From: a bacterium
GTDB taxonomy: Bacteria > Patescibacteriota > Minisyncoccia > Phycocordibacterales > SBAW01
DNA length: 64,000 bases
Assembly (NCBI GenBank): GCA_037139975.1
Contig: JBAXFJ010000001.1
Span: forward strand, 171,017 to 235,016
Reading direction: 5' to 3'
A program made the position numbers and the translations under genes. Positions 2,445 to 64,000 of this stretch are shown piece after piece. Position 1 is the stretch's first letter, and every line of letters starts with the position of its first letter. Below the pieces are notes generated by a model. That model was not told the DNA's origin. It saw only the letters and a program-made list of their open reading frames with translations, and did no database searches.

Positions 2445-5400
2445 ATGTTGTTGGATGTTGTATATAAAGCCGCTCTTCTTTTTTGTGTTCCTGGCCTGGT
2501 GCGCTCTAGGGCGCGTTATCCACACAAAAGTTTTTCTTACGCGTTTGCATACGCAAAGAGTGCTAGGATTTGGGTAATGCGTACACGCACTACATTTCTA
2601 CTTCTTGCTTTTTTCCTTGTGATTGGTTTTTCATCTTTATTTACAAATCAAGGAAGGGGGATAGGTGCCGCTTTGTATAGCGGTCTCATTGAAACCCACA
2701 TTGCGCAAGCTGCTGGCAGTGTCACAAACGATGCTGGCAATACGTGGACCAACTATTGTTATGGTCTCATTGAAGATGAGATGTGCACCGTTAGTCCGCT
2801 GGCTTGGGAAAACTGGGAAACATGCAACGCTGACGGCACCATCACTGCTAATGTTGGCTGGAATTATGTGGGGGTGCCACAAGGTAGTGGTGGTTGGTAT
2901 CTGCAGTTGAATTCTGGGGACTTGCCTGTCTCTGGCAATTTAGGTGTTGCAGACAATCACACTTTCGCAGGACTTTCGCCTAATCGATCATACAATATTT
3001 ATTTTGATGTTTTTCTTGGTCCGCGTTGGAACTCAGGCTGGTGGGCTACCGATAATTTTCCTGGTGGTGCAGCCTACAGAAACCATCTCAACACTGGCCC
3101 TTGTGTTTCCTCTCCCACAGGCTCCATCAGCAGCCTCACCAACCCCTGCCAAATAGCCAGCGGCCAAACCACCTGCACGCCGCTCTTTAACTGGAACACA
3201 GCAAACACCAACGGCACAGTCGTAACCAATATTGTCGGTAGTGCGCCATATGCCGACGAGACAGCCTATACTTGGTATATTCCTGCTAACGGTTCTGGCG
3301 GGCACGGTGCCGCGCTTCCTGCTGGTAATTACACTATTAAGTTATATGGACAAAATTCGGCTGGCGGCTGGGTGCTTCTTGATTCAAAGCCGACTACGGT
3401 TGTTTCAGCCCCAACAGGCACACTCACCACCCCAAGCTCCTGTTATATTCCGAGCGGTCAGACTACGTGCACACCGCTCTTTGATTGGCAAACCGCGCAA
3501 ACCAATGGCGTAGTTCAGCTTAATATCGTCAATGCAAACGGCGCTCAGCCGTATCCCACCGAATCGTTGTACGTCGCCAACCGAGGCACCGCAATCACTG
3601 GTACTCCTGGTACGGCGCTTCCTGTTGGTACCTATACCGTTAAGTTGTACGGCCAAAATTCAGCAGGCACCTGGGTGCTTCTTGACTCTAAGCAGGTCAC
3701 GATTGTTCCTTTCCCAACCGCAACTCTCTCCGTTTCTCCAACCTCGGTTGCATACAACGGTCAAGCAACACTCACTTGGAGTTCAACCAACGCCACCTCC
3801 TGCACCGCAGGGGGGCCGTGGTCTAACGCAAGCGCCCCGCTTGGGGGTACTGGATCGACGGGGGCGCTTATTGCAAATGCTACGTATACGCTCCAATGTA
3901 CGGGTCCTGGAGGTACCACACCGCTCCAGTCGGTGACGGTTTCGATCAATAACCGAACTCCTGCGGGGTATCTGGATTCTGCCAGCTGTTCGGCTTTGAG
4001 TGGTTGGGTAGTGGATCCAGACAGCGCCAACAGCATCGCGAGTGTGCGTATCTTCGACGGCCCTTCGAGCACAGGCACACTCATTGGCACGTACCCCACA
4101 AGCGTGTTCCGAGGTGACGTTACCGAACCGAACACAGGCATTGCTGGTCTTGTTGCTGGCAATCATGGATTCTCTGTGCCAACGCCGGCAAGCCTCCTCG
4201 GGGGCGCGACTCACAGCATCTATGCTTATGGGGTGGACATTCAAACGGGCGGATTGACGAATTTGGGCTCGAGTCCAAAAAGTATCACCTGCCCGACCCC
4301 AACCGCAACTCTCTCCGTTTCTCCAACCTCAATTGCATACAACGGCCAAGCAACACTCACTTGGAGCTCAACTAACGCCACCTCCTGCACCGCAGGGGGG
4401 CCGTGGTCTAACGCAAGCGCACCGCTTGGGGGTAGTGGATCGACGGGGGCGCTTATTGCAAACGCGACGTATACGCTCCAATGTACGGGCAATGGCCAAA
4501 CATCTGCACTGCAGTCAGTGACGGTTGGGGTGGGAGCCGCTCCGGTAAATGGTGTGTGTGCTGCAACACACTACAGCTGTAGTGCTGGTACGAGTGCTAC
4601 TACTGTGGAAGGAGCAAGCACCTACACGTGGAGTTGTGTTGGCCTTAACGCGGGGACCACCGCCTCGTGTTCCGAGGCGAAGCCAGCGCCAACCGCAACG
4701 CTCGCTGTTTCTCCAACCTCGGTTGCATACAACGGTCAAGCAACACTCACTTGGAGTTCAACCAACGCCACCTCCTGCACCGCAGGGGGGCCGTGGTCTA
4801 ACGCAAGCGCCCCGCTTGGGGGTACTGGATCGACGGGGGCGCTTATTGCAAACGCGACGTATACGCTCCAATGTACGGGAAATGGTCAAACGTCCGCGCT
4901 CCAGTCAGTGACGGTTACCACGAGTCCTCCCCTGTCTTGTACTTCACTGTGGGGCGGTGCAGCCATCGCCAATGGCGACTCCGTGACCGCATATCACACA
5001 GCTTCGACCATCTATCCTGCCACCTGCGCCCAAGAAACGCGTGCTTGCGGCAACGGAGTATTGAGTGGAAGTTACACAAACCAGACGTGCGCGGTCTTGC
5101 AGCCTGATCTCATCGCCTCCACCGTCATCCCAAACACTGCGGTGGCTGGTAGCGCTGTCACGCTCTCTGCAACCGTCACTAACCGAGGCACCGCAAGCAC
5201 TGGCGCAAGCTTCTCGAACTTCTTCCAAGTCGCCACTGCCACAAACGGTGGCGGCACAGTCACCGACCTCGCTCCCGCAGTGATGTCTGCACTTGCGGCA
5301 AATGCATCAGGCGCCACAGCGAAGCCCTACACCTTCACCACCGCAGGCACCTACTCGGTCCGCGCCTGTGCTGACAAGTCTTCTGCTACTGACCTTGGCG

Positions 5401-7784
5401 CCATCGCCGAGTCAGATGAAACCAACAACTGTGGGACATGGACTAATGTAGTGGTTACCGCTGCTCCTGCGTCTGACCTCACCACCTCAGCTGCCCAACC
5501 AACCGCAGCGGTAGTTGGCAACGCTGTCACGCTCTCTGCAACCGTCACTAACCGAGGCACCGCAAGCACTGGCGCAAGCTTCTCGAACTTCTTCCAAGTC
5601 GCCACTGCCACAAACGGTGGCGGCACAGTCACAGACCTTGCTCCTGCGGTGATGTCTGCACTTGCGGCAAATGCATCAGGCGCCACAGCCAAGTCTTACA
5701 CCTTTACTGCTGCAGGCACCTACTCGGTCCGCGCCTGTGCCGATAAGTCTTCTTCTGCGGACCCTGGCGCCATCGCCGAGTCAGACGAAACCAACAACTG
5801 TGGGACATGGACTGATGTAGTGATTGATTATCCTGGAGCAACCTCTGCCCTGCATGGGCAAGGGTGTGTGCTCCCTGTGGGGGGAGGCACATGCAACCTC
5901 ACTGCATGGTGGAGCATCACCGGTCTTACTGCAGGTGAGACGGTTGACGTGAGTGTCACGGGGCCTGGTCTTGCAATACGCACCTTTAAAAATATTCCTG
6001 CAGACTCAACCAAACTCACTCGCGCAACACGCAGAAGTCTTCTTGCTGCGGTGCTGGGTGGTTTTGGCGCTACTCAAGATTCGACAACACCTTTTATCCA
6101 GGCAGTTGGCACTGCAGGGACGTTCAATCTGACACTTACCCGGCACGCCAACCAATCTGCACTAGGTTCGTTTGCACTCTTTGCTTGTCCTCCAGGAACA
6201 ACTAATGTCAACGAAGTTTGCACAGGCGCTCCTGACTTGATAGCGGGTGCCACAGTGCCAACTGCTGCGGTTGCAGGCATCATCACCACGCTTTCGGGAG
6301 TGATCACCAACCAGGGCGGCGCAAGCACCGGCACTACGTTCACGAGCCTGTTTGAAATAAACTCCAACAACAATCCAACAAGTTTCCATAGTATTGAAGC
6401 AACCCAGACCTACGTCACCCCTGCACTTGCGGTGGGTGGTACAAACACCGCAACAACGCCTTACAGTTTCCCCGCGTCTGGTACCTACTATGTGCGCCTC
6501 TGTGCAGACACAAACGACAGCAATGTGGGTACCATCACCGAAGCAAACGCTTTGGGTACTGGTGAGACCAACAACTGCGGCCCTTGGACCCCTGTGATTG
6601 TGACCGCTCCTGACCTGATTGCGGGCGGCGCTTCTCCGGTGTCGGCGACCGCTGGCGCGTCCATATTCCTCAGTGCACCAATCTCCAACCAAGGCACCGC
6701 AGACGTCACTCAAAACTTCTCTAACTTCTTTCAGGTGGCGGTTGATGTGAACGATGCCACCACCATTACCGATCTTGCTCCTACCACCATGACTCCCTTG
6801 TCAAAAGGCGCTACACGACTTGCAGCACGACCATATTCATTTGGAGCAGGCACCTACTACGTCCGTGTGTGTGCCGACAAAACGTCACGCAACGATGGGG
6901 GAGTAATCACCGAGTCAAATGCTACCGACGCATCCTCGATTGATACAGGCGAGACCAACAACTGCGGCAGCTGGGCAAAGACGGTGGTGTGCGCGGCGGG
7001 CAAAGTCTATTTTGGCGGCTCGTGTCTCTTTACTCCACCAGGGTGTCCTCTTGATACAGTGAATGATGCTGGGCTGTGTTGCCCAGTGGGACAGGTCAAT
7101 GGTGGTGGTGTATGCGTTCCTTCATGCACAAACGACTATGTGCTTGTGAATAACCAGTGCGTACCCGCGGTATGTTCTGGCACTACCTCGTGTGTTTCGG
7201 GTCCAAACATCTGCGGTATGACGAACCCAGGCACCTATGACCCAGCCACGTGCACGTGCGTTGCCACACCGCCTGCAGATTCTTTGTGCCATATATGCAC
7301 ACCAAACGCCGCGTGTGCCGCAAGTGCTGCAAACAACTGTGGTTCAAGTAGCGGTACTTGCAATGCGGCAGGCAGCTTCTGCGCTCCACCCGCAGACAAC
7401 GTGTCGTGTTCTGTGGGGGCGGTCTGTAACCCAGGACAAGTGGGCACGCCGCCAAACTGCAGCTACCCTGGTTCTACTGGTTCAGTAAATGGTTCAACTT
7501 TCGCTCCAACAATCACACTAAACGCACCTGCGCGTGTTCGTGCGGGAGGCACTGCAACGCTCACGTGGTCTGCAACGGGCTCTACTCAATGTGTTCTGAC
7601 AGGTCCCCACCTGCCAAGTGCGACGGTTACAGTAACTGGTGATGCAAACAGCAATGTTGCAAGTCAACAAGTCGCCGCGACTATCCTGGGACAAAGTGTA
7701 TACACAGTCAGGTGCTCAGGCCTTGGAGGCTCTGTTTCAGTGAGCAGGACGGTAAACCTTATTCCGCAAGTCATCGAACAATAA
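2445..7784 (+). CDS. giant secreted surface protein with CARDB-like and Ig-like tandem repeats and a Cys-rich C-terminal region (adhesin-like)
   Basis: 1779 aa. A signal/TM segment (MRTRTTFLLLAFFLVIGFSSLF) suggests the real start may be the ATG at 2577. Contains 2 N-terminal ~95-aa repeats, 3 (+1 C-terminal) Ig-like 'ATLTWSSTNATSCTAGGPW...YTLQCTG' modules, 4 CARDB-type modules (NRGTASTG...ESDETNNCG) and a ~150-aa cysteine-rich block. Gly/Thr/Ser/Asn-rich composition. Confidence 0.85.
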   Translation: MLLDVVYKAALLFCVPGLVRSRARYPHKSFSYAFAYAKSARIWVMRTRTTFLLLAFFLVIGFSSLFTNQGRGIGAALYSGLIETHIAQAAGSVTNDAGNTWTNYCYGLIEDEMCTVSPLAWENWETCNADGTITANVGWNYVGVPQGSGGWYLQLNSGDLPVSGNLGVADNHTFAGLSPNRSYNIYFDVFLGPRWNSGWWATDNFPGGAAYRNHLNTGPCVSSPTGSISSLTNPCQIASGQTTCTPLFNWNTANTNGTVVTNIVGSAPYADETAYTWYIPANGSGGHGAALPAGNYTIKLYGQNSAGGWVLLDSKPTTVVSAPTGTLTTPSSCYIPSGQTTCTPLFDWQTAQTNGVVQLNIVNANGAQPYPTESLYVANRGTAITGTPGTALPVGTYTVKLYGQNSAGTWVLLDSKQVTIVPFPTATLSVSPTSVAYNGQATLTWSSTNATSCTAGGPWSNASAPLGGTGSTGALIANATYTLQCTGPGGTTPLQSVTVSINNRTPAGYLDSASCSALSGWVVDPDSANSIASVRIFDGPSSTGTLIGTYPTSVFRGDVTEPNTGIAGLVAGNHGFSVPTPASLLGGATHSIYAYGVDIQTGGLTNLGSSPKSITCPTPTATLSVSPTSIAYNGQATLTWSSTNATSCTAGGPWSNASAPLGGSGSTGALIANATYTLQCTGNGQTSALQSVTVGVGAAPVNGVCAATHYSCSAGTSATTVEGASTYTWSCVGLNAGTTASCSEAKPAPTATLAVSPTSVAYNGQATLTWSSTNATSCTAGGPWSNASAPLGGTGSTGALIANATYTLQCTGNGQTSALQSVTVTTSPPLSCTSLWGGAAIANGDSVTAYHTASTIYPATCAQETRACGNGVLSGSYTNQTCAVLQPDLIASTVIPNTAVAGSAVTLSATVTNRGTASTGASFSNFFQVATATNGGGTVTDLAPAVMSALAANASGATAKPYTFTTAGTYSVRACADKSSATDLGAIAESDETNNCGTWTNVVVTAAPASDLTTSAAQPTAAVVGNAVTLSATVTNRGTASTGASFSNFFQVATATNGGGTVTDLAPAVMSALAANASGATAKSYTFTAAGTYSVRACADKSSSADPGAIAESDETNNCGTWTDVVIDYPGATSALHGQGCVLPVGGGTCNLTAWWSITGLTAGETVDVSVTGPGLAIRTFKNIPADSTKLTRATRRSLLAAVLGGFGATQDSTTPFIQAVGTAGTFNLTLTRHANQSALGSFALFACPPGTTNVNEVCTGAPDLIAGATVPTAAVAGIITTLSGVITNQGGASTGTTFTSLFEINSNNNPTSFHSIEATQTYVTPALAVGGTNTATTPYSFPASGTYYVRLCADTNDSNVGTITEANALGTGETNNCGPWTPVIVTAPDLIAGGASPVSATAGASIFLSAPISNQGTADVTQNFSNFFQVAVDVNDATTITDLAPTTMTPLSKGATRLAARPYSFGAGTYYVRVCADKTSRNDGGVITESNATDASSIDTGETNNCGSWAKTVVCAAGKVYFGGSCLFTPPGCPLDTVNDAGLCCPVGQVNGGGVCVPSCTNDYVLVNNQCVPAVCSGTTSCVSGPNICGMTNPGTYDPATCTCVATPPADSLCHICTPNAACAASAANNCGSSSGTCNAAGSFCAPPADNVSCSVGAVCNPGQVGTPPNCSYPGSTGSVNGSTFAPTITLNAPARVRAGGTATLTWSATGSTQCVLTGPHLPSATVTVTGDANSNVASQQVAATILGQSVYTVRCSGLGGSVSVSRTVNLIPQVIEQ
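3713..4915 (+). repeat. three near-identical ~225-bp intragenic direct repeats (about 3713-3940, 4295-4525, 4685-4915)
   Basis: Nucleotide copies beginning ccaaccgcaactctctccgtttctccaacctc... are almost identical at DNA level with irregular spacing (582 and 390 bp). They encode the Ig-like PTATLSVSPTS...LQCTG module. Confidence 0.85.
5095..5820 (+). repeat. two tandem near-identical ~360-bp copies of the CARDB-module coding sequence (about 5095-5460 and 5461-5820), followed by two diverged copies (about 6230-6990)
   Basis: The string ctgtcacgctctctgcaaccgtcactaaccgaggcaccgcaagcactggcgcaagcttctcgaacttcttccaagtcgccactgccacaaacggtggcggcacagtcac occurs in both copies. Confidence 0.85.
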
Positions 7785-7851: not shown

Positions 7852-9564
7852 ATGCAGGCGCATGAGGAAAGTCTTGCCACATTTTTACGTGACGCGGGGA
7901 TGGTGTCGCGCTCGCAGTTGGAGTCGCTTGTGCGGCGAGTGACGGTCTCGGGCGAAGCGTTTCACCACGTGCTTTCCACTTCAGGCGCGCTCAGTGAAGA
8001 CGAGGTGCGTCGCGCACTTTCAAAAGTGCTTGGAGTGCCTTTTGTCTCACTTACTACAGAATCGATCTCGCCGGAGGCGTTGGTGCATATACCCGAACCT
8101 TTTGCACGGTCTCATGGTGTGGTTGCATACCAGATGCACCGCGAGCGCGGCGTTCCTGGAGGGATCCTCCTTGAGGTTGCGTTGCTTGATATGGATGCGC
8201 ATGCGTCACTGCAGCAGCTCGACTTGCCCTACACGGTGCGCGTGCGTCTCACCGACAGGGCGTCGCTCACTCGTGCATTGCTGCTCTATCAAAAGGTGCT
8301 CAAAGATTCTTTTTCGTCTCAGGCGCAGGAGCCGCTTGCAGTGGTGGATGCATTGCTCGAACGAGGTCTTTACAGCAAGGCCGAAGCGATTCATCTGTCG
8401 CCAACCGAGAATGGTTTTTTGGCGCACTACCGTATTGGTGGTGAATTGTATGAAGCACTAACGCTCTCGTTTGAGGTTGGGCAAGTTGTGTTGCAAAGAG
8501 TTGCTACGCTTGCGCATGTGATTGTTGGCACACAAACCCCTCAAGAAGGCAGTTTCAAAATCGCTGCAGGGGATGAAGAAGTGTCTGTTCGTGCCTCGCT
8601 GCTCCCGACTGTGGCGGGCGATGCGCTCACCCTGCATCTGTTACGTGCGGGAGTGGGTGCTGCGGGGCACACGCTCGAGTCTCTTGGTTTTCATGGCGCA
8701 GGACTTGCGCGCCTGAGGCATGCGCTTCATGCCCGTTCCGGGTTGGTGCTGGTTTCTGGGGGCGACCATGCTGGCGTCACCACACTTCTCTATACACTGC
8801 TTGATACGCTTGGTGGGTATACGCACACTACCATCACCGTTGAGGGTGGTGTGTCAGTACGCCTTCCCTATGCGCTGCAAACTGAAGCAGGGGGTGATGG
8901 CGGTGTATCAATGGCGACAGGGGTCCGTGCAGCGCTCTTGCAAGACCCTGACGTGCTCATGATTTCTCAGATTGCTGATCGAGAAACCGCCTTGCTTGCG
9001 GTCTCTGCTGCGCAGAGGGGTGTTTTAGTAGTTGCGGGGGTTGCTGCCACATCAGCTTCGGTTGGTATTGCCAACCTTCTGTCCTTGGGCGTTTCTTCGA
9101 CCATGTTGGCGAGCTCTCTTGCAGTGTCTGTGGGGACGAACTTGGTGCGGGCGCTGTGTCCGGCGTGCAAGAGCGGCGCCGAAGCATATAAGTTGTCGCG
9201 TGCCGAAATGGCTTCGCTGGAAGGCGAGGTAGATTTCAGTCGCATATTGTCTGCGCTGAAGGAGACGCGCAGTGTAACAGAAGACGCGCCGTGGAAGACA
9301 GTATCTTTTATACATCCCAACACGTGTGATGCGTGCCAAGATGGGTACCAAGGGTACTGCGGTGTGCAAGAAGTGTTTGTGTCTTCGCGTGCGATACAAC
9401 AGAGTGTTGTTGCATATGCTGCATATCCAGACGATGCGGTGTTCGCATATGCGATAGAAACAGCCGCTCGAGCCGATGGGGCGATCACCCTGATTGAAGA
9501 CGGTGTATACAAGGCAGCCCAAGGCCGTACGAGCCTAGAGGAGGTGCTTTCGCTCGAAGCGTAG
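7852..9564 (+). CDS. PilB/GspE-family (type II/IV secretion 'ATPase') paralog with degenerate catalytic motifs; predicted pseudo-ATPase
   Basis: 570 aa. GspE_N-like N-domain, a conserved core (RASLLPTVAGDALTLHLL; ITVEGGVSVRLPY) and a C-terminal tetracysteine CPAC...CDAC motif. Walker A reads GGDHAGVTT (Lys->Val), Walker B/Asp box reads DPDVLMISQIAD (Glu->Gln), and the His box reads RGVLVVAGVAATSA (His lost). Confidence 0.75.
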   Translation: MQAHEESLATFLRDAGMVSRSQLESLVRRVTVSGEAFHHVLSTSGALSEDEVRRALSKVLGVPFVSLTTESISPEALVHIPEPFARSHGVVAYQMHRERGVPGGILLEVALLDMDAHASLQQLDLPYTVRVRLTDRASLTRALLLYQKVLKDSFSSQAQEPLAVVDALLERGLYSKAEAIHLSPTENGFLAHYRIGGELYEALTLSFEVGQVVLQRVATLAHVIVGTQTPQEGSFKIAAGDEEVSVRASLLPTVAGDALTLHLLRAGVGAAGHTLESLGFHGAGLARLRHALHARSGLVLVSGGDHAGVTTLLYTLLDTLGGYTHTTITVEGGVSVRLPYALQTEAGGDGGVSMATGVRAALLQDPDVLMISQIADRETALLAVSAAQRGVLVVAGVAATSASVGIANLLSLGVSSTMLASSLAVSVGTNLVRALCPACKSGAEAYKLSRAEMASLEGEVDFSRILSALKETRSVTEDAPWKTVSFIHPNTCDACQDGYQGYCGVQEVFVSSRAIQQSVVAYAAYPDDAVFAYAIETAARADGAITLIEDGVYKAAQGRTSLEEVLSLEA

Positions 9565-10356: not shown

Positions 10357-11355
10357 ATGCAATTACAGTCAATTCATGATGCGGATATAGCAGAAAAACG
10401 TGTCCTGCTGCGCGTTGACTTCAACGTACCGTTTACAGACAGTGGTGCTATAGCTGAAGACTCGCGCATCAAAGCAGTGGTGCCGACCATTGTGCTGCTC
10501 AAGCAAAAAGGGGCTGCACACATCACCCTCATGACTCACGTGGGGCGACCCGAGGGAAAGGTGGACGAGGCGTTGCGTACGGCGCCACTCTTCAAATATC
10601 TCAGTGAGCTGACTGACACCACAGGGGTCGAGATGCTTGAAAACCTGCGTTTTGATGCGCGCGAAGAAGTAAACGACGTGGGGTTTGCACAAGAACTCGC
10701 GTCGCATGGTGATGTGTTTGTGAACGATGCGTTTGCGGTGTGTCACCGGGCGGCGGCTTCTACGGTTGGCGTTGCGGCATTCCTGCCCGCGTACGCGGGC
10801 TTGTTGGTTGAAAAAGAAGTTGCACATCTCTCTGAAGCGCTCATGCCGCCTGTGGGTTCTGTAGCGATTATCGGCGGGGCAAAGCTCGAGACCAAATTAC
10901 CTCTCATCGCGCAGTTTTCTTCTTTGTATACAAAAGTGTGTGTCGGCGGTGCGCTTGCAAACGAGTATGCGCCAACAGCAAACGACACCAACGTATCGCT
11001 CCCGAGCGATGGGGTGCCCCAACACCAAGGAATGCTTGATATTGGCCCACAGACTGCTGCTGCATGGGCAGAAGAGATACGGCGTGCGCCGTTTGTGCTG
11101 TGGAATGGTCCAGTGGGTATGTATGAAAAGCCGGAGTATCGGCACGGCACCGACACGCTTGCTCGGGCAATTGCCGAGGGTTCGTGCCGCGCAGTCTTGG
11201 GTGGTGGGGACACCGACGCGGCGCTCGCGCAGTTCACCTTTGACTCGGAGCGCGTCTTTATCTCAACCGGCGGGGGAGCTATGCTCGAGTTTTTGGCCAA
11301 TGGCGGCACATTGCCCGCGCTTGAAGTGCTTAAAAATCCTAAGGTTAAACCTTAG
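10357..11355 (+). CDS. pgk: phosphoglycerate kinase (short form)
   Basis: 332 aa; RVDFNVP N-terminal motif, HVGRPEGK, and a GGGDT-like C-terminal region. Confidence 0.8.
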   Translation: MQLQSIHDADIAEKRVLLRVDFNVPFTDSGAIAEDSRIKAVVPTIVLLKQKGAAHITLMTHVGRPEGKVDEALRTAPLFKYLSELTDTTGVEMLENLRFDAREEVNDVGFAQELASHGDVFVNDAFAVCHRAAASTVGVAAFLPAYAGLLVEKEVAHLSEALMPPVGSVAIIGGAKLETKLPLIAQFSSLYTKVCVGGALANEYAPTANDTNVSLPSDGVPQHQGMLDIGPQTAAAWAEEIRRAPFVLWNGPVGMYEKPEYRHGTDTLARAIAEGSCRAVLGGGDTDAALAQFTFDSERVFISTGGGAMLEFLANGGTLPALEVLKNPKVKP

Positions 11356-11359
11356 GATT
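11335..11359. repeat. palindrome family copy AATCCTAAGGTT-A-AACCTTAGGATT (pgk/HIT convergent ends)
   Basis: Perfect 12-nt arms. Confidence 0.8.
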
Positions 11360-14315: not shown

Positions 14316-15677
14316 ATGAAAAGAGGCTGGCTCGTGGTCGCGGTGATCGTGTATGTGGCGCTGTTTGCTGTGCGTTTCCACATTCTTTTGCAACATGAAA
14401 AGGCGCAGACATTGTCCAGTTTTGTGGGGCAAAAGGTGGTGGTGGTTGGGCGTGTTGCCGACGACCCAGACAAACGCGAGACCTCGTTGCACCTCACAGT
14501 TGAGGTTGAAAAAGTTGATGGAGCGCCTGCACGTGGTGGGTTGCTCGCGCTGGTGCCGCGCGAAAGTCCTGTGGTGTATGGCGACGAGGTCGAAGTGAGT
14601 GGCAAGCTGGTAGCACCGCAGAACTTCGAGACCGACACGGGCCACATCTTTGACTACCCAAGTTACCTGCGCGTGCGCGGTATCTCTGTGGAAGTTCCCC
14701 GGGCAACACTCGTGCGCCGAGTTCCCGTGGGTCCCTCGCTGCAGGGCGTACTCTTTTCTTTGAAGCATGCGTTCGAGAGCTCGCTCGACCGGCTCTTTTT
14801 TGAGCCCCAAAACGCGCTCCTGCAAGGCATTTTGCTTGGCGAGCGGCGCGGCATCCCCAAAGACCTCACCCAAGCGTTTGTAGAAAGCGGTTTGGTGCAC
14901 GTAGTGGTGCTGTCGGGCTACAACATCTCGATTGTGTCTGAGGGTGTTTTCCGCGCGCTCGCGTTCCTACCGCGCACGCTCAGCTTCGCGACCGGCGGGT
15001 TCACCATGGTTCTCTTTGCGCTCCTGGTGGGTGGCGGGGCGACCACCATTCGCGCGCTCATCATGGCGGGCATCGCGCTCCTGGCGCGCTATATGCACCG
15101 CTCGGCCGTCGCCCTGCGCTCGCTCGTTGTTGCCGCCGCCGCAATGGCGCTGTGGAACCCGCTCGTGGTTTTATATGACCCGTCGTTTATTTTGAGCGTC
15201 TTGGCAACCTTTGGGCTCATCACCCTCTCCCCTTGGGTCGAGGGATACATCAATCGCATAAAACTTTTGCAGCACCCGCGCCTTGCGGGCGCTCGCTCGA
15301 TAGCCGCTTCAACCATCGCCGTCGAGATTTTCGTTTTGCCCGTGCTGCTCTATTTTTCTGGCGTTCTCTCGTTTCTTTCCGTTCCGGCAAACGTCCTCGC
15401 GCTTCCTATTGTGCCTGCGGCAATGCTGTTGGGGTTCGTCTCTGGCCTGCTTGGGTTTGTCCCGAGCGCCCTTGGCGCCACGCTTGCATTCCTCCCCACG
15501 CTTGGGACCGATCTGCTCCTGCGTTGGATGCTGTTGGTCACCACCATTGTCGCTGCCGTCCCATTTGGTGTCGCCATCATCCCCGAATTCTCTGGCTGGC
15601 TGGTCCTCGCCTGCTACATTCCACTCACCTGGTTCGCCGTGGGGAAGTATAGAAAGAGTGACGGCGTGATAGAATGA
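14316..15677 (+). CDS. comEC: ComEC/Rec2 competence channel, N-terminal part only (DUF4131/OB region plus polytopic competence domain, no MBL domain)
   Basis: 453 aa; one N-terminal TM, then a soluble region, then a multi-TM region with LVHVVVLSGYNIS resembling the ComEC competence-domain signature. The expected C-terminal metallo-beta-lactamase domain is encoded separately at 17454. Confidence 0.7.
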   Translation: MKRGWLVVAVIVYVALFAVRFHILLQHEKAQTLSSFVGQKVVVVGRVADDPDKRETSLHLTVEVEKVDGAPARGGLLALVPRESPVVYGDEVEVSGKLVAPQNFETDTGHIFDYPSYLRVRGISVEVPRATLVRRVPVGPSLQGVLFSLKHAFESSLDRLFFEPQNALLQGILLGERRGIPKDLTQAFVESGLVHVVVLSGYNISIVSEGVFRALAFLPRTLSFATGGFTMVLFALLVGGGATTIRALIMAGIALLARYMHRSAVALRSLVVAAAAMALWNPLVVLYDPSFILSVLATFGLITLSPWVEGYINRIKLLQHPRLAGARSIAASTIAVEIFVLPVLLYFSGVLSFLSVPANVLALPIVPAAMLLGFVSGLLGFVPSALGATLAFLPTLGTDLLLRWMLLVTTIVAAVPFGVAIIPEFSGWLVLACYIPLTWFAVGKYRKSDGVIE

Positions 15678-22898: not shown

Positions 22899-23417
22899 TT
22901 ACCACATGCTACACGCAGTAGCCCCGCTACACACCATCCACGACCAGGTGGGGCGTGCAGGATCATAAAATTCATCACTTGTTGGGGTCGAGGCGACTTG
23001 TGAGTTTGCAGGAAAGTTATCTATGAGTTTATAACTTTGTCCATCTGAACAATAAAGATATGCTCTGTTTATCGCAGTGGTTCCGTCAAGTTGTGGATCT
23101 TGTGGTAGTGCAGAGGTGTTAGTGTATGCCGGGGCAAGTCCGGGTATATAGTTTGTCTTGTTTCCATAGTCAGTCGTGTTGCCCCACCAACTATTGCAAC
23201 TGCTGCCGCCCGTGTTGCCAGTAGAAGGGTAGGCGTTATTGTCGTTGTAATACACCGAAAGGGAAAGGGCGAGGTTTTTGAGGTCGCTTTTGCGTTTGGT
23301 GTCGTTTGCGCGGTACTTGGCGCTCGAGAGGCTGGTCATCACAATGCCTGCCAAAATGGCTATGATTCCAATTACCACCATCAATTCAACAAGTGTAAAT
23401 CCTCTTTTGTGTGACAT
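22899..23417 (-). CDS. type IV pilin/pseudopilin-like protein (class III signal peptide)
   Basis: The track ORF runs to 23522, but the likely start is MSHKRG|FTLVELMVVIGIIAILAGIV (prepilin leader plus N-terminal hydrophobic helix), ATG at 23417. Asn/Tyr/Gly-rich globular part. Confidence 0.7.
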   Translation of the reverse strand: MSHKRGFTLVELMVVIGIIAILAGIVMTSLSSAKYRANDTKRKSDLKNLALSLSVYYNDNNAYPSTGNTGGSSCNSWWGNTTDYGNKTNYIPGLAPAYTNTSALPQDPQLDGTTAINRAYLYCSDGQSYKLIDNFPANSQVASTPTSDEFYDPARPTWSWMVCSGATACSMW

Positions 23418-23553
23418 ATCACAAGTAAAGCACGTTTTGTTTGGTTGCGCTTTGACTTTGACTTTGCTAGTATGTGCATAACGCATGTAGCGCGTGCTTT
23501 CGTGTGCTCTGGTGTGTAGCAAGGTATTAATTAGTCAGTAATCATTTATTTAT

Positions 23554-25163: not shown

Positions 25164-25214
25164 AAACTCAAAACACTCAAACAAAAAGTAGAAAATAAAA
25201 GTGCTTAAGAAAAA

Positions 25215-25253
25215 ATCTCCACACTAAAATCAAAAGTGTGGAGATTTTTTCTT
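25215..25253 (+). terminator. intrinsic terminator after rpsJ
   Basis: atctccacac...gtgtggagat stem followed by TTTTTTC. Confidence 0.6.
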
Positions 25254-25618
25254 GCGCTTGATGAGCGTTTCAAGTATACTTGATAAAAGTTGCTCATTTG
25301 TTTTAGGGTTAGTGCGTGCGCACAAAATACACACCATATTGCAATATGGTGTGCCGATTGCTCGGGTTTTTTGTTTGCTTAACCTCATCTCTAGAAAAGG
25401 CAAAGCAAGCAAAGGACAAAACGACAGATCGACAAAAACACTCCCCGGGCGGGGAGTGTTTTTGTGTCCAAAACTAAAAAGAGTATTCGCTACAAGTTTC
25501 TTGCATAACTGAAAGGGTTCGTGTACAGTGTTGTGGACTCTCAATAAGAGGTTGTCCATGTCCCGGGCCGGATGGCCGCTCAGATTTCAGTATCAGGGTA
25601 GGGGGACCAATAGAAACC

Positions 25619-30574: not shown

Positions 30575-30802
30575 ATGTCAAAGAAAAATTCACTCACAAA
30601 CCACTCTGCTGAAGATTTGCACCGCTTGGTCGCAGACAAGCGCGATGAGCTGCGCGACTTGCGTTTTGCGGCCGGAGGGAGTAAAAATCGCAATGTAAAG
30701 CTCATCTCGACCCTCCGCAAAACGGTTGCTCGGGCTCTGACTGAACAGCGTGCTCAAGAACTCGCAAGGTTAAACCTTGAGGGGGCGGGGGCTAAGGTTT
30801 AA
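30575..30802 (+). CDS. rpmC: 50S ribosomal protein L29
   Basis: 75 aa. Confidence 0.85.
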   Translation: MSKKNSLTNHSAEDLHRLVADKRDELRDLRFAAGGSKNRNVKLISTLRKTVARALTEQRAQELARLNLEGAGAKV

Positions 30803-30807
30803 CCTTG
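30765..30807. repeat. two adjacent shorter palindrome copies CAAGGTT-A-AACCTTG and TAAGGTT-T-AACCTTG at the rpmC 3' end
   Basis: Same AAGGTT.AACCTT core as the copies at 11335 and 57469. Confidence 0.6.
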
Positions 30808-31083
30808 ATGAATATATTTATGGAAAAAGCAGCAACAAAAGCCCCAATAGCAACAAAGAAGAAGACTCTCCGTGGTACGGTGGTGTCCGACAAAATGCAG
30901 GACACTGCGGTGGTGGCCGTGCTGCGCTACGTAAAGCATCCAAAGTACAAGAAGTACATGAAGATCACCAAGAAGTATCACGCCCACAACCCGGCTAACC
31001 GCGCAAAGACTGGTGAAGCGGTTACCATTCGTTCATGTCGCCCCCTTTCCAAGACCAAATCGTTCGAGATCGTATTTGCATAA
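30805..31083 (+). CDS. rpsQ: 30S ribosomal protein S17
   Basis: 92 aa; GTVVSDKMQKT motif. Confidence 0.9.
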   Translation: MMNIFMEKAATKAPIATKKKTLRGTVVSDKMQDTAVVAVLRYVKHPKYKKYMKITKKYHAHNPANRAKTGEAVTIRSCRPLSKTKSFEIVFA

Positions 31084-36379: not shown

Positions 36380-36949
36380 ATGGAAGCAAACACCTTTGTC
36401 ATCATGGGTCGGCCGGGTTCTGGCAAGGGTACACAAGCAAAGCTCTTGGCTGAGCGTTTTACCTGCGCCGTAGCATCTCTGGGCACTGAGTTTCGACATA
36501 TGATGGCGAGCGACACCGTTGCCGGGCTGCATCTCACCGCAGGGCTCAATGCGGGAGAGCTTGCGCCGACTTGGTTGGCAAATTATCTAAGCACAAAAGC
36601 ACTTGTTGCACTCGGTGCAGGAGAAAAAATAGTCTTCGATAGTGGCTGTCGGTTTCTTACTGAAGCAGTGCTTTTTGACGAAATAACCACATGGCTTGGG
36701 CGAGACTACCTAGTGCTCTATGTTGATGTGGCTGAAGAGGAGATACGTCGCCGTGTTGCAAAACGAGGTGTAATAGAAGGGAGGTTAGACGACTCGGACA
36801 GCGCGCTCGATAAGCGGATTGAAGAATTTAACACAAAGACGTTACCGGCAATAAACTATTTTCGATCAAAAGGAAAGCTTCTTACTGTCGACGGCGCGCA
36901 AATGGTTGAAGAAGTCTACAAAAGCATCCTAAATGTTATTGGGGTATAA
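36380..36949 (+). CDS. adk: adenylate kinase (short-lid type), copy 1
   Basis: 189 aa; P-loop GRPGSGKGTQ, an FDSGCRF NMP-site analogue and RLDDSD short lid. Confidence 0.8.
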   Translation: MEANTFVIMGRPGSGKGTQAKLLAERFTCAVASLGTEFRHMMASDTVAGLHLTAGLNAGELAPTWLANYLSTKALVALGAGEKIVFDSGCRFLTEAVLFDEITTWLGRDYLVLYVDVAEEEIRRRVAKRGVIEGRLDDSDSALDKRIEEFNTKTLPAINYFRSKGKLLTVDGAQMVEEVYKSILNVIGV

Positions 36950-37547
36950 TACTGCTGTGGAAGAACTAACCGTCATATTTTTGGGCCCACAAGGGAGCGG
37001 CAAGGGCACCCAAGTGGCTCTTTTGAAGGAGTATATCGCCAAGAACAATAGCCGCTCGATTGTCTACTTTACCGCTGGCACTAACCTGCGCGCATTTGCC
37101 ACTAACGAAGGCTACACACAAGAAAAGATCCGCCCACTCATTTCAGCGGGCAAGCTCATTCCCACGTTCATAACCACAGAACTCTTTTCTTCACGCCTCA
37201 TTGGCAGCATGCACGGCAACGAGCACATAATCTTGGACGGGTTTCCGCGCACCATCGACCAAACACCAACTCTGGACACTGCGCTGCAGTTTTATGGGCG
37301 AAAAAATGTGACCGTGCTTTCGTTCACGCTTTCTGATGCTGTGGCGCGCGAGCGCCTCTCAAAGCGCGACCGCGGAGATGATACTGAAGAGGGAATCGAA
37401 GAGCGACTCCGCTGGTCGCACCAAGAAGGCGCGCTGGTGAGCGAGTGGTTCAAAGCAAATTCTTTTTATAGATACATCGAGATCAACGGCGAAGGTCCCG
37501 TTGAAGAAGTGCATCGCAACGTGCTCACCGTGCTCGGTTTTTCTTAA
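36933..37547 (+). CDS. adenylate/nucleoside-monophosphate kinase paralog, copy 2
   Basis: 204 aa; P-loop GPQGSGKGTQ, LDGFPRTIDQ and RGDDTEEGIEERL. Overlaps copy 1 by 17 nt; the true start may be internal. Confidence 0.7.
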   Translation: MLLGYNTAVEELTVIFLGPQGSGKGTQVALLKEYIAKNNSRSIVYFTAGTNLRAFATNEGYTQEKIRPLISAGKLIPTFITTELFSSRLIGSMHGNEHIILDGFPRTIDQTPTLDTALQFYGRKNVTVLSFTLSDAVARERLSKRDRGDDTEEGIEERLRWSHQEGALVSEWFKANSFYRYIEINGEGPVEEVHRNVLTVLGFS

Positions 37548-47594: not shown

Positions 47595-47604
47595 AAGAAA
47601 GTAG

Positions 47605-47993
47605 TGGAGATGGGCGGAGTTGAACCGCCGTGCAATGATGGCCTACAGAAGCTTCTACGTTGTCTATCTTGCTTAATTCCGCCCGGAGGCGATCTTTAGC
47701 ACATCGTGGGCGAAGCGAGCGAAATCACGATGCACTGCAACTCTTATGTTCGGCAACAAGCCAGAATATCTCTTGTTGCTATACGCTTGATGTATAACAC
47801 CTACACCTCGCCCTCAAGCGAGAAACTAGGGAAGTGGAGCTTAGGCGCGCGCGAACGCGAAGCCGAAGTCATTTGCCGCGAAATACGGCGATACGCTGTT
47901 TTTTGCAGGTATGGTTTCCCGATTTTTAAGAAGTTCGGGGCTTCTACAACGCGCATTCTGTAGGTACCATCATTGTCTAGGCCTGGCATCCCC
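47605..47993 (-). ncRNA. ssrA: transfer-messenger RNA (tmRNA)
   Basis: 5' end GGGGAUGCCAGGCC... pairs with the 3' end ...GGCGGUUCAACUCCGCCCAUCUCCA (T-arm GUUCAACUCC as in E. coli tmRNA; acceptor ggggatg/catctcc with one G-U; discriminator A; CCA not encoded). An internal UCGCGGCAAAUGAC resume context gives tag ORF ANDFGFAFARA* (47876..47841). smpB lies immediately upstream. Confidence 0.8.
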
Positions 47994-48050: not shown

Positions 48051-48530
48051 TTACTGATTTTTCAAGGTTCGGTCGATTTCGCGCTTGGTGTCGCGCTCTT
48101 TCAAAAGTGCGCGCTTGTCATATTTCTTGAGGCCCTTTGCAGCACCCAAACGCATCTTTAATTTACTTCCTTTATTATACACTGAAATTGGCACTAATGT
48201 CAAACCTTTTTGGGTTTCATATCCGGCAAGCTCTTCAAGCTCTTTCTTTGTTAAAAGGAGGCGGCGCGTGTGTTCGGGGTCATAGTCTTTGGGCGTGTTG
48301 CTGGCTTGGTAGGGGGGGATGGACATGCCCACGATGTAGGCTTCAAAGCCGCCCGCGCGCCCCGAGGGGCGCGCGACTATGTGAGCGCCTTCGAGCTTGC
48401 CGTGGCGCGCGCGCAGGCTTTTGACTTCAAATCCGAGCAGCTCGATACCTGCCTCAAACTCTTTGAGGATTTCATACTGCATCCGCACCTTTTTATGCTC
48501 GATGAGGTTCACTCCCCAAGAATAGCGCAC
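48051..48530 (-). CDS. smpB: SsrA-binding protein SmpB
   Basis: 159 aa; SmpB core (GIELLGFEVKSLR..., RRLLLTKKELEEL) with an insertion. Confidence 0.85.
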   Translation of the reverse strand: MRYSWGVNLIEHKKVRMQYEILKEFEAGIELLGFEVKSLRARHGKLEGAHIVARPSGRAGGFEAYIVGMSIPPYQASNTPKDYDPEHTRRLLLTKKELEELAGYETQKGLTLVPISVYNKGSKLKMRLGAAKGLKKYDKRALLKERDTKREIDRTLKNQ

Positions 48531-57468: not shown

Positions 57469-57491
57469 ATCCTAAGGTTTAACCTTAGGAT
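57469..57491. repeat. palindrome family copy ATCCTAAGGTT-T-AACCTTAGGAT (malic enzyme 3' end, upstream of TA operon)
   Basis: Perfect 11-nt arms. Confidence 0.8.
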
Positions 57492-57536
57492 CTGTGGGTG
57501 CTTGATAGCCGTATATATCTGGTATATACTGTGGGT

Positions 57537-57782
57537 ATGAACGTAAAAGTTATATTCAACACGAATAAAAAGTTAAAAGAAGCGGCGATGAAAAAAGCAC
57601 GCAAAGAAGGACTGACCTATTCTGCTGTGCTTAATATTGCCACTGAGGCATATGTTGGCGATCGTCTGAAGATAACCGCACTCGAACAACATCTCGAAAA
57701 GGCTCGTGAAGAAATTCGCCAAGGGCGTTACTATACTCACGAGCAGGTGATGCGCAAATTAGGTTTGAGTAGCAAGAAATGA
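57537..57782 (+). CDS. type II antitoxin (RelB/ParD-like)
   Basis: The track ORF starts at 57498; the likely start is the ATG at 57537 (MNVKVIF...). Small basic/acidic helical protein whose stop overlaps the RelE-like start by 4 nt. Confidence 0.55.
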   Translation: MNVKVIFNTNKKLKEAAMKKARKEGLTYSAVLNIATEAYVGDRLKITALEQHLEKAREEIRQGRYYTHEQVMRKLGLSSKK

Positions 57783-59928: not shown

Positions 59929-60957
59929 CTACTTTTTCAGCAGCAAAATTTTATACATCTGCAAGGTCGATAGGAAAAGCGAGAGGACCAGCGGTCCCAA
60001 GATGAAACCCATAGGTCCAAAGAAGAGAATGCCGCCCAAGAGAGAGCAGATGATGAAGATGGGCGGCACTTCGAGTCCTTTGCCAAAAAAGTAGGTGGTG
60101 AGGAGGTTGTCGACCAAGACCACCATCCCCAAGCCCAAGAGCCCGCACAAGAGTGCGGCGAGCATCTGTCCTTTGAGATATAAAAAGACGACGGCGGGGA
60201 TGATCACAAAGAGTGTCCCCAGACCTGGGACCGCGCCCACAATGCCACCCACAATACCCCAAAGCATTGCGTTGGGAATATTGAGGAAATAGAACGCAAG
60301 ACCAAAACACGCCCAGCGGATGAGCGCGACCAGGAGTGTGCCACGCATGACCGAGCCTATGGTCTGCTCCATACTTTGTAAAATTTTGTCTGTGTGTTCA
60401 CGTTGAAACGGGCTGAGCGAGACGAGCGTGGTATATATCTTAGCTCCGTCACGCAAGAAGAAAAAGAATGCGAGGAGCATGAGTGATGTTTCAAGCAGCA
60501 GGAAAAGTGTTTGCGATAGGAACGCGCCCAGATTTTGAGACATAAACGAAAGCGCCTTTGCAACATAGGCACTGATGCTGAAGGTAAAGGCGGGGTAGAG
60601 GTGACGAATAGGGGTTTCAATGGCAGTGCGCAACACCTGTGCATAGTTGCCTTCGTTTCCTTGCGAAGCCAGGTAGGCCAACTGTGCTTCTTTGAATATT
60701 TGCAGACCGAGGAAAAAGAGCGGCACTATAAAGAATGCCAACACGGCACAGACGAGCAGTGCCGCGGCAAATGTCTCGGACTTGCCCAGCAGGCGGGCGA
60801 GCACGGTGAATGGTCGTCGACAGAGAATTGCCAACACCGCGGCGAGCGCGAGCATCTGCACAAAGGGTAGGAACACGAGAAAGATAAGGAGCGATGCTGT
60901 TCCAAATAAAAGTACAAACGCACTGGTTTCAAGAGTTGTTTTGTCCATAAAACTCAT
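59929..60957 (-). CDS. AI-2E family transporter (UPF0118 / PerM-like membrane protein)
   Basis: 342 aa; 8 TMs with the AI-2E arrangement. Confidence 0.6.
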   Translation of the reverse strand: MSFMDKTTLETSAFVLLFGTASLLIFLVFLPFVQMLALAAVLAILCRRPFTVLARLLGKSETFAAALLVCAVLAFFIVPLFFLGLQIFKEAQLAYLASQGNEGNYAQVLRTAIETPIRHLYPAFTFSISAYVAKALSFMSQNLGAFLSQTLFLLLETSLMLLAFFFFLRDGAKIYTTLVSLSPFQREHTDKILQSMEQTIGSVMRGTLLVALIRWACFGLAFYFLNIPNAMLWGIVGGIVGAVPGLGTLFVIIPAVVFLYLKGQMLAALLCGLLGLGMVVLVDNLLTTYFFGKGLEVPPIFIICSLLGGILFFGPMGFILGPLVLSLFLSTLQMYKILLLKK

Positions 60958-60992
60958 AATAACAGAGTTTTTTCGCGAGGGGTTGGTTTTTG

Positions 60993-61079
60993 CGGAGAGA
61001 GCGAGATTCGAACTCGCGGGCCTAATTAAAAGCCGACAGTTTAGTAAACTGTTGATTTAAACCACTCATCCATCTCTCC
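60993..61079 (-). tRNA. class-II (long variable arm, G73) tRNA, Ser-like, apparent anticodon ACU (unusual)
   Basis: Reverse complement ggagaga-tg-gat-gagtggtttaa-atc-a-acagt-ttactaa-actgt-cggcttttaattaggcccg-gcgag-ttcgaat-ctcgc-tctctcc-g. Good acceptor, T and D arms; the 5-bp anticodon stem is perfect and the loop reads uuACUaa. Confidence 0.55.
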
Positions 61080-61102
61080 AGATAGATCGGTACTGACCAA
61101 TA

Positions 61103-62785: not shown

Positions 62786-62950
62786 AGTATGTTTAAAAAC
62801 CTAAAAGGGCGACCATGTTGCACCAACTTTACCTTTCAGCAAAATTGAACACAGTCGCCCGTCTAGATGCTCAAGCAAATAAAAAGCTGAAAGTGTCTAA
62901 AGTTGGTGCAATCCAATATTACCATTTTTTATTTTGTATTGGCAAACGAG

Positions 62951-63070
62951 GAGCCACGCGGAGCGTGGAAAACCCTTTTGGATTCTGAATTCGGCGGGGG
63001 GAATGCATTAGTGTCGCGCCTTCGGCGCGACCCCATTTCGGCTCTAAAATCCGATTTCGTTTTTTGGCGG
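62951..63070. repeat. IR-R: 120-bp terminal inverted repeat
   Basis: gagccacgcggagcgtggaaaaccc...ccgatttcgttttttggcgg is the exact reverse complement of IR-L. Confidence 0.85.
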
Positions 63071-63120
63071 TGTCTATTGTACAAAATTCGAACTTATTTT
63101 GAAAGCAATCCTGACTAATC

Positions 63121-63486
63121 GCACGCGCGGAGCGCGTGGTGCCTCTAAACTAAATCGTACGCTCCACGAAAGCCCCGCCACCGCCTCGCTTCACTCGGCA
63201 ACCCCAAAAAGAAAAATGTCTCTTGCTCTTTTGATTTTCGCGGGGGTGGATTTTTTCTAAAATGGAAAGGACATTTTTCTTTTTGGGGTTCTGCCCTCCA
63301 AGTATTCGGGCAGTGTGGCGGGGCTTCAATTCGGACTCGGTTTTGCAAAAACTATTTTCTGGGGAAAGGATTTTGCAAAACTTCGGCTAATGTTTTTGAA
63401 ATTCGGCGGGGTTCTGAATTCGGGTTCCCGCGCGGAGGAGGGGTCTGGGGAGGAATCCGCGCGGGCTTCTTCTGATTTTTTGGCGG
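63121..63486. repeat. degenerate, expanded third copy of the 120-bp repeat (same orientation as IR-R)
   Basis: Shares the blocks acgcggagcg(c)gtgg, ttctgaattcggcgggg and gattttttggcgg with IR-R, interrupted by insertions. Confidence 0.5.
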
Positions 63487-63492
63487 AATTAT

Positions 63493-63981
63493 TTAATAGT
63501 CGTAAAGATGTTCAATCTTTACTCCTTCAGATTCTAGCTGAACTATAATCATACTAAGAGATTTTGCGGGAGCTTGCACCGTAATCCTTTTATCTGAACT
63601 TGTCATCATATTCATCGTGAACAAAACTATTCCATTTTTTAAATCACTATTCCAACTTTGTGGTGCTACAGCGGTCAGTAAAATCTCATCATTACCCGCA
63701 AAATCAACAAATTGTATACTTTGTCGAGCAAGTACCGGCATAACATCAGTAAAACCTTGGTAATGTGGAACTGCCATAATATACGAACCATTACCCAAGT
63801 CTTTGATTTTGCGAACTCTTGGGTCTTGAAAAATACTATCGGGCACATTTTTTGCAGAAACATATATTTCTGTATCAGCTATACCGTAAACTGCGTGTGT
63901 TCCAATTCTGATAAGCAGAGCATAGCCCGTTTTTACTCCGTATTCTAAACTAAGAAAAACTTTCCGCTCAAGTTTTCGCAA
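63493..63981 (-). CDS. hypothetical protein (162 aa) in AT-rich DNA distal to the recombinase element
   Basis: ORF only; no recognisable motif. Lower GC than the core genome. Confidence 0.4.
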   Translation of the reverse strand: MRKLERKVFLSLEYGVKTGYALLIRIGTHAVYGIADTEIYVSAKNVPDSIFQDPRVRKIKDLGNGSYIMAVPHYQGFTDVMPVLARQSIQFVDFAGNDEILLTAVAPQSWNSDLKNGIVLFTMNMMTSSDKRITVQAPAKSLSMIIVQLESEGVKIEHLYDY

Positions 63982-64000
63982 AAAATGTGAACCGAAAAAA

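Follow-up and report, generated by a model that had tools for sequence, protein, structure and literature searches.

We analysed a stretch of 64,000 nucleotides (hereafter, the window) from a bacterium of the Patescibacteriota, part of the Candidate Phyla Radiation (CPR), covering positions 171,017 to 235,016 of contig JBAXFJ010000001.1 (assembly GCA_037139975.1). In this window, of which 92% is coding, a short perfect palindrome recurs at four loci, next to ppa and tig, to PGK and a HIT-family gene, to the genes of the ribosomal proteins L29 and S17, and to a malic enzyme and a toxin-antitoxin pair. We interpret these palindromes, with moderate confidence, as copies of a miniature insertion repeat which forms hairpins, is spread through several Patescibacteria lineages and resembles the REPINs (hairpin-forming doublets of REPs, the repetitive extragenic palindromic sequences) or the Rickettsia palindromic elements (RPEs). 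The observations that support this explanation are recurrence above chance, compensated doublets, absence at orthologous sites, replaced gene 3′ ends, an in-frame insert in miaB, and two identical copies in one gene. The copies found in the window are:

587-603 (core 589-601): copy 1, singlet CTAAGGTT-A-AACCTTAG, with perfect arms of 8 nt
11335-11359: copy 2, singlet AATCCTAAGGTT-A-AACCTTAGGATT, with arms of 12 nt, between the convergent PGK (plus strand) and HIT-family (minus strand) genes
30762-30811, plus strand: copy 3, inverted doublet with cores at 30766-30778 (central A) and 30794-30806 (central T), separated by the spacer GAGGGGGCGGGGGCT
57469-57491: copy 4, singlet ATCCTAAGGTT-T-AACCTTAGGAT, with arms of 11 nt

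These copies share the 13-nt core AAGGTT-N-AACCTT (AAGGTTNAACCTT), which has exact matches at 589, 11341, 30766, 30794 and 57474, i.e., five cores at four loci, against a mean of 0.00 in 100 dinucleotide-preserving shuffles. It is the most repeated 12-mer of the window once we set aside the internal repeats of a large CARDB-domain protein (1779 aa, 2445-7784), which are spaced by about 370-585 nt (3732/4317/4707; 5181/5550) and account for most of the other repeated 12-mers. Relaxed patterns of the core, with two to three mismatches allowed, gave nothing extra above chance in the window. The half-site TAAGGTT is not enriched on its own: it occurs 13 times in the window, seven of them within palindromes, and 5.6 occurrences are expected. 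An assembly artefact, such as an adapter or a chimera, is ruled out by the presence of identical copies in independent assemblies (the NCBI/ENA contig and the Logan assembly) and by the in-frame copies in genes.

The original prediction, made from the letters of the window, had described this recurrent palindrome as lacking a T-tract and as carrying two CCTNAGG sites in each long copy. We recovered every copy that it listed, and the two sites are CCTAAGG and CCTTAGG, both present in each long copy. Its observation is correct, because exact cores recur that are not found in shuffles, and they have neither a T-tract nor a terminator-like score. The anatomy of the element excludes an intrinsic terminator: its centre is a single nucleotide, its stems are AT-rich, no T-tract follows, and no terminator-like call was made at any copy.

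The centres of all four loci lie at most 25 nt from the 3′ end of a gene, a zone that makes up 5.5% of the window (p ~1e-5, for a threshold of 25 nt picked after the data had been seen). An enrichment at gene ends is thus seen under this post hoc threshold. The description of the loci as gene-end or intergenic needs amending, since the two convergent genes both have their stop codons within copy 2, and the 3′ end of rpmC includes the tandem pair of copy 3. Copy 1 is located 16 nt past the ppa stop codon (620, minus strand) and 15 nt ahead of the tig ATG (571, minus strand). Its predicted RNA hairpin has −7.5 kcal/mol, and its extended 19-mer (586-604) carries one mismatch. Right after it stands a telomere-like direct repeat, TTAGGGTTTTAGGGTTAG (600-617), which resembles degenerate half-sites (TAAGGTT vs TAGGGTT). 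Copy 2 contains the TAG of PGK (11353-11355, plus strand) and the TAA of the HIT-family gene (11347-11345, minus strand), and encodes their C-termini, NPKVKP* and NPKV*, respectively; its predicted hairpin has −14.2 kcal/mol (z −4.9). Copy 3 provides the final 12 codons of rpmC (L29, 30575-30802; ending in ...ARLNLEGAGAKV*) together with its stop, and ends 10 nt ahead of the ATG of rpsQ (S17, 30821) in the ribosomal operon. It is predicted to fold into a single long hairpin of −23.4 kcal/mol (z −4.6).

Copy 4 (predicted hairpin of −12.8 kcal/mol) begins 6 nt past the stop codon of the malic-enzyme gene (57463), and 10 nt separate its end from the −35 hexamer of a downstream promoter, TTGATA-N17-TATACT (57502-57530), which precedes the RelB/ParD-like antitoxin and ParE pair. 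An operator specific to the antitoxin was ruled out, as the same sequence recurs at unrelated loci. The tetranucleotide CTGT flanks copy 4 on both sides, and was discarded as a target-site duplication because it is not repeated at the other copies. Within 57502-57539, the end of the −10 hexamer TATACT is 6 nt away from the antitoxin ATG (57537), so the toxin-antitoxin mRNA may be leaderless. The public gene call for the antitoxin takes as its start a GTG further upstream (57498), which overlaps the promoter.

The comparison with related genomes points to insertion of the copies. The closest homologues of the L16 and PGK of the window are labelled Paceibacterota, Parcubacteria or Adlerbacteria. 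In the relative L028, whose L16 is 98% identical to that of the window, and also in L029 and L030, the L29-S17 junction has no doublet. L29 has 75 aa in the window vs 67-69 aa in the relatives, i.e., eight more than in L028. The PGK of the relatives ends in ..VLKA* or ..VLKASE*, that of the window in ..VLK-NPKVKP*, and the C-terminus of the HIT-family protein has likewise been replaced, by NPKV*. The palindrome has therefore replaced the ends of both genes. Such a replacement is possible because the element containing the core carries TAA or TAG in two of the three frames on both strands, the third frame being open. No copy of the core with up to two mismatches was found in about 63 kb from L028, L029, L030, L032 and L033. 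As to conservation, which the original prediction had asked to be checked, the motif is absent from these ~63 kb of relatives, and the core is found in several other Patescibacteria lineages. The relative L029, which lacks the palindrome, has another repeat of about 85 nt (CCTAGCGAAGCGAGAGAAC...GGAATCGAAA...AATATAAGGG) at 4852, 4938 and 8184; it fills two gaps of the ribosomal operon, in one of them twice in tandem.

These data also bear on whether the palindrome is a DNA uptake signal, i.e., a core recognised by the competence and type IV pilus machinery of CPR that accumulates through biased uptake and recombination. The window encodes ComEC (14316-15677), a PilB-like ATPase (7852-9564) and a pilin-like protein (22899-23522), which, judging by their sequences, are the DNA-uptake machinery typical of CPR. 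Known uptake sequences often form inverted pairs after genes and have lineage "dialects", and the DNA that flanks one copy of the palindrome is unusually similar between lineages. However, the half-site stays at chance level outside palindromes, the density is about one locus per 20 kb vs about one per kb for the known uptake sequences, and the closest relatives have no copies in their ~63 kb. The copies arise as insertions of 40-56 nt and not by point mutation, and our searches found no publication about uptake sequences of Saccharibacteria or CPR. We consider this reading, one of the three originally offered, very unlikely.

In the doublets of the repeat, the central bases are complementary in all 16 distinct sequences of alignment A3 (CG 10, AU 4, GC 1, UA 1), and in 15 out of 15 pairs in a separate tally. 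The helix between the two copies has 207 of its 208 core cells paired in this alignment. Two further core positions vary on both sides, which breaks the palindrome of each copy but keeps the pairing of copy with copy. In locus L006, collected from another genome, the compensated variants are exact reverse complements (AAGGTTCGACCTT / AAGGTCGAACCTT and AAGGCTAAACCTT / AAGGTTTAGCCTT). Variants in the arms disrupt a model of pairing within copies, not a model of pairing between them. Because the central bases are complementary and mutations in the arms are compensated between copies, the unit of the doublet is one long hairpin, for which folding predicts −23 to −34 kcal/mol (z −4.6 to −6.7). The doublets have a biased polarity whichever strand is read, with A or C at the centre of the first copy in 15 of 17. 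A sub-family with conserved spacer ends (GAGGAGGA...ACGGGAA) includes the pair in the window, and its five independent instances are all oriented with transcription. In REP doublets, the two units stand as inverted repeats around a spacer, and a single hairpin is predicted for them in single-stranded DNA or in mRNA (PMC3116915). By its sequence, the doublet of CPR has the architecture of a REPIN.

Complementarity between copies is difficult to reconcile with an operator bound by a transcription factor, be it dimeric or tetrameric, or with a chromosome-organiser site such as those of Noc, SlmA, MatP or ParB. The complementary central bases and the compensated arms fit strand pairing or inverted duplication, and are not required by a protein that reads the sites one at a time. 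A perfect palindrome of 13-25 bp is what an operator should look like, tandem sites could accommodate a tetramer, copy 4 abuts a promoter, and the core is conserved across lineages. Yet only one of the four loci abuts a promoter-like site. The others are convergent, with both stops overlapped, intra-operonic or intragenic, and there are copies inside coding sequences of other CPR genomes. Their neighbours share no function (ppa/tig, pgk/HIT, L29/S17, malic enzyme/toxin-antitoxin). The suggested search for an associated helix-turn-helix regulator gave none adjacent to the copies among the open reading frames (ORFs) of the window. An operator also fits poorly with the insertion polymorphism, i.e., with close relatives that lack the copies, including that of the ribosomal-protein operon junction. 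To our knowledge, the canonical consensus sequences of parS, of the Noc- and SlmA-binding sites (NBS and SBS) and of matS differ from the core. The operator reading is in our view quite improbable.

We then considered the distribution of the motif in other genomes by scanning for the 19-mer CCTAAGGTTNAACCTTAGG in one genome per species. This gave 17 loci, of which 10 are from Patescibacteria-type metagenome-assembled genomes (MAGs), mostly as tandem pairs. The remaining seven, outside of CPR, are single and larger GC-rich hairpins in unrelated bacteria; about nine chance matches were estimated from the size of the database. These 10 loci come from MAGs labelled Saccharibacteria, Moranbacteria, Doudnabacteria, Nomurabacteria, "Patescibacteria group" and, in one case, "Bathyarchaeia". 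The paired palindromes of the CPR loci are mostly 19-45 nt apart, and in a contig of Doudnabacteria the palindrome occupies every intergenic gap of a run of co-directional genes. Metagenome contigs yielded additional copies. Scans of viral contigs gave no match, either for the 19-mer or for the doublet pattern, and hence no sign of a phage vehicle. Rfam 15, at gathering thresholds, had no match to any copy in the window or in L006, L011, L016 and L017. Our literature searches (for palindromic motifs, uptake sequences and REP in CPR, and for the literal sequences) found no description of the repeat. Many literature matches to CCTAAGGTT/AACCTTAGG concerned an unrelated scramble-shRNA control sequence and were discarded.

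Some of these MAGs deserve a comment. The "Bathyarchaeia archaeon" (locus L002, DATGZC010000012.1, with P0305 named alongside) is probably mislabelled or mis-binned, because its pheST is bacterial, it contains the palindrome of CPR, and its MiaB has 60% identity with one from Patescibacteria. Its pheT was rejected as a case of in-frame insertion, given a net difference of only +3 aa from the PheT of E. coli, and is not used as evidence here. A "Saccharibacteria" MAG (CAYJVW01: L008, L010, L013 and L017) has IF3 and L20 respectively 69% and 55% identical to those of the window. It also has the A/T central-base variant of the motif found in the window, the other lineages using C/G. Given this shared variant and these identities, the MAG may be closer to the lineage of the window than its name implies. 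Two contigs of one MAG share a palindrome doublet at their tips: L010 ends in it (2699-2723) and L017 starts in it (1-49), the flanks being identical. The repeat is therefore a point at which short-read assemblies break.

The spread of the sites also bears on whether they are fragments of guide-RNA-type arrays, either CRISPR or the stem-loop units of TIGR arrays that are found in CPR. The latter have palindromic stems flanking pairs of spacers (bioRxiv 10.64898/2026.09.09.750476). In our data no site has more than two cores, and the sites are dispersed, some between housekeeping genes and others within them. There is no box C/D pair, no match in Rfam, and no Nop-domain or Cas gene found in the window. 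The lack of an array, of a box C/D pair and, in the window, of a Nop gene rules out a TIGR-Tas stem-loop array, and any array of the guide-RNA type is barely conceivable.

Intragenic copies are found in miaB. The miaB of L006 (4752-6269) contains two in-frame doublets, and when its product is aligned with structure 7mjv, an insertion of 14 residues coincides exactly with one of the two. Among 25 CPR homologues of MiaB (414-549 aa, at ~65-70% identity), the variation in length is concentrated in a few loops. The loops of the doublets are empty in some homologues, and elsewhere are filled with peptides that translate doublets (RLNL/RFNL ... KVEP). Other loop peptides seem to encode different palindromes, as judged by back-translation of peptides; e.g., LETKSPIGDLVSKLP gives a perfect palindrome. 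The DNA of L006 shows two more, unrelated hairpin inserts in miaB (5572-5634 and 5875-5940). Palindromic inserts that keep the reading frame may be a feature of CPR proteins at large. The miaB of L037 has an identical hairpin of 43 nt in both loops, whereas its relatives carry another sub-family at the second loop, which points to recent copying or conversion. The element at site B is common to L006 and L038 with the same compensated variant, and was thus inherited.

The evidence on gene ends, hairpins and miaB could also be accounted for by a domesticated element acting on RNA. Its hairpins would mark the gene ends of transcripts as 3′-end stabilisers, as RNase III sites, or as hairpins for factor-dependent (e.g., NusA-assisted) pausing or termination without a U-tract, and an insertion origin would be compatible with such a role. 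Besides the proximity of all four loci to gene 3′ ends, this is favoured by the stability of the predicted hairpins, by doublet stems of 13-19 bp (near the length recognised by RNase III), by the orientation with transcription of the five independent GAGGAGGA...ACGGGAA doublets, by a nucleotide conservation in miaB above the coding constraint, and by the presence of NusA in the window. Still, copies lie in the essential coding sequence of miaB and in the L29-S17 junction, where termination or cleavage would be harmful, and relatives manage without them. Canonical terminators with a hairpin and a T-tract exist in these genomes (25432-25465 in the window and 4320-4350 in L016), and the location at gene ends is explained equally well by selection against disruptive insertions. 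We find the RNA-level role unlikely.

We thus return to the insertion repeat as the best explanation. The reading of the palindromes as REP-like was one of those first offered, and it is the one that retains support, through the hairpin of the inverted doublet, the siting at gene ends, the insertion polymorphism and the in-frame inserts. The conserved unit is the 13-nt core, with flanks specific to each lineage (CCT...AGG in the genome of the window). The replicative form is likely to be the inverted doublet, i.e., a core, a spacer of 6-32 nt and the reverse-complement core, which would fold as a single long hairpin when the DNA is single-stranded, or in RNA, as in REPINs. Singlets would be lone cores in which the two arms pair with each other. 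New copies would come by insertion or by copying from existing copies; we infer a transposition-like process, or one of template switching or gene conversion, acting on the hairpin in single-stranded DNA, with the conserved core as the putative target of a trans-acting protein. Selection would then leave copies where they do little harm, i.e., after or across stop codons, between genes, or in frame in permissive loops of proteins. The copies in the window probably have no dedicated regulatory role, and side effects such as 3′-end RNA hairpins are possible.

Several observations weigh against this explanation. We found no Y1/IS200-type transposase of the kind associated with REP sequences (RAYT, PF01797), nor any other candidate mobiliser, among the ~70 ORFs of the window with Pfam and NCBIfam; PF01797 is also absent from the precomputed Pfam calls of the 18 kb of flanking contig, and a crude regular expression for the HUH motif matched nothing in the DNA of all collected loci. 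No consistent direct repeat flanks the copies as a target-site duplication would. The copies are few, with four loci in ~82 kb of source contig (the window, at 174596-238595 of the 247,420-nt MAG contig ERZ4222710 NODE_6, and the 18 kb flank, together about a third of that contig), and there is no further copy of the core in the flank. All five cores of the window are perfect and none is decayed. The same core is present in lineages that are only 55-70% identical in conserved proteins, which needs either a conserved recognising factor or horizontal spread, both putative. Finally, the site-B element of miaB is more conserved than its host gene: L006 and L038, whose miaB have identities of 69% (protein) and 70% (DNA), have identical codons at 13 of 13 positions in the arms of the element, vs 57% at conserved degenerate residues overall (p ~7e-4). 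The 24-codon window with the element ranks in the top five of 448, with 93% nucleotide identity vs a median of 72%. These comparisons of sequences suggest constraint or homogenisation rather than neutral junk. The excess conservation and the perfect cores of the window would reflect either a constraint on sequence or structure, or homogenisation (by template switching in the hairpin or by conversion from other copies), or recent exchange.

There is also a tentative reading, which we regard as possible and less than even in probability. The 13-nt core would be the site of a putative factor, not of the Y1 type, shared or exchanged among Patescibacteria, that copies or homogenises the doublet hairpins. 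The repeat would then be a long-lived system maintained at the nucleotide level, which colonises even essential coding sequences and which may also have been put to use in RNA, in recombination or in uptake. If so, it would be a miniature replicator or maintenance system of a new kind, specific to CPR, and not one more REP family.

The insertion repeat has wider implications. Persistent selfish or structural repeats are unexpected in CPR, because their genomes are tiny, streamlined and, in the window, ~92% coding. If our explanation is confirmed, it would account for some of the unusual lengths and additional loops seen in CPR proteins, for shifted stop codons and for some assembly breaks. The repeat would also serve to trace recent genome dynamics and to spot CPR contigs that are mis-binned, and would raise the question of which enzyme recognises a 13-nt core conserved across lineages of 55-70% identity. 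The nucleotide conservation of the intragenic copy hints at a function or at a homogenising mechanism.

The window has other features of interest. Its end (60000-64000) and the sequence beyond it (L036, 1-10000) form a low-GC island (0.44 vs ~0.52), with a large serine recombinase (61103-62785, minus strand) by tRNA genes (60993-61079 and 61189-61273). Two more large serine recombinases are encoded in the 8.8 kb between the end of the window and that of the contig. The island is probably a mobile element integrated at a tRNA. These recombinases were considered as mobilisers of the repeat and rejected, as they belong to this island and no link to the repeat was seen. In the ribosomal operon, the S10-L3 gap is unusually long (~450 nt, 25164-25618) and contains three unrelated palindromes (25270-25283, 25330-25353 and 25432-25465), the last of which resembles a bidirectional terminator; a minus-strand ORF in this gap (25230-25559) matched no family. 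The L30 gene is missing between S5 and L15 (33971-35066), and its absence is a known hallmark of CPR. The tmRNA gene (47602-47993, minus strand) adjoins that of SmpB (48051-48530, minus strand), and two adenylate-kinase-like genes are in tandem (36380-36949 and 36933-37547).

Among known systems, the repeat is most like REPs and REPINs. It has short palindromic units, inverted doublets with a spacer that form one hairpin, a mostly extragenic or gene-end location, both singlets and doublets, and homogeneity within the genome. It differs by the lack of a RAYT in the third of the contig that we covered, and by its size: units of 13-25 nt and doublets of 38-60 nt vs ~70-110 nt for REPINs. Its unit is a nearly perfect palindrome with a single asymmetric base. 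It is present in low copy number (four loci in ~82 kb), some of its copies are intragenic and in frame, and its core is common to distant lineages (55-70% identity in conserved proteins).

The RPEs, reportedly described by Ogata et al. in 2000 as in-frame palindromic repeats in conserved protein genes of Rickettsia, are tolerated in surface loops of the proteins of a reduced-genome, host-dependent bacterium. No transposase is known for RPEs or for the repeat of CPR. As with RPEs, the palindromic repeat of CPR belongs to a bacterium of this type, is tolerated in surface loops, and is in frame in conserved genes with homologues that lack the insert (the MiaB of L006 against 7mjv, the loops being empty in some of 25 homologues, and L29 against that of L028). 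However, RPEs are of ~100-150 bp, belong to an unrelated sequence family and are found in Alphaproteobacteria, whereas the CPR inserts have 40-56 nt and, at gene ends, are a source of stop codons too.

Small non-autonomous repeats with inverted-repeat termini also include MITEs (miniature inverted-repeat transposable elements), Correia elements and the small dispersed repeats (SDRs) of cyanobacteria. Correia elements form hairpins in transcripts that are cleaved by RNase III, and SDRs are palindromic inserts of 21-27 nt that nest in one another. Unlike for MITEs, neither a parent insertion sequence with matching terminal repeats nor a target-site duplication was seen for the CPR repeat, and its arms are themselves palindromic; the only candidate for a transposase found in the window is the large serine recombinase of the separate island. 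The DNA uptake sequences (DUS) of Neisseria and the uptake signal sequences (USS) of Pasteurellaceae occur about once per kb, often as inverted pairs after genes, and with dialects specific to lineages. Like them, the CPR repeat has a short conserved core that comes in dialects, often stands in inverted pairs behind genes, and belongs to a host with competence machinery. It differs in that its half-site is not enriched alone, its density is 20-fold lower, its copies are inserted, and close relatives lack it.

As elements of the REP/REPIN, MITE and RPE types are well known, the repeat of CPR is not of a new kind. What is unusual is its very small size, its near-perfect palindrome with one asymmetric base, its entry in frame into essential genes, a core that is shared across lineages, and an excess of nucleotide conservation.

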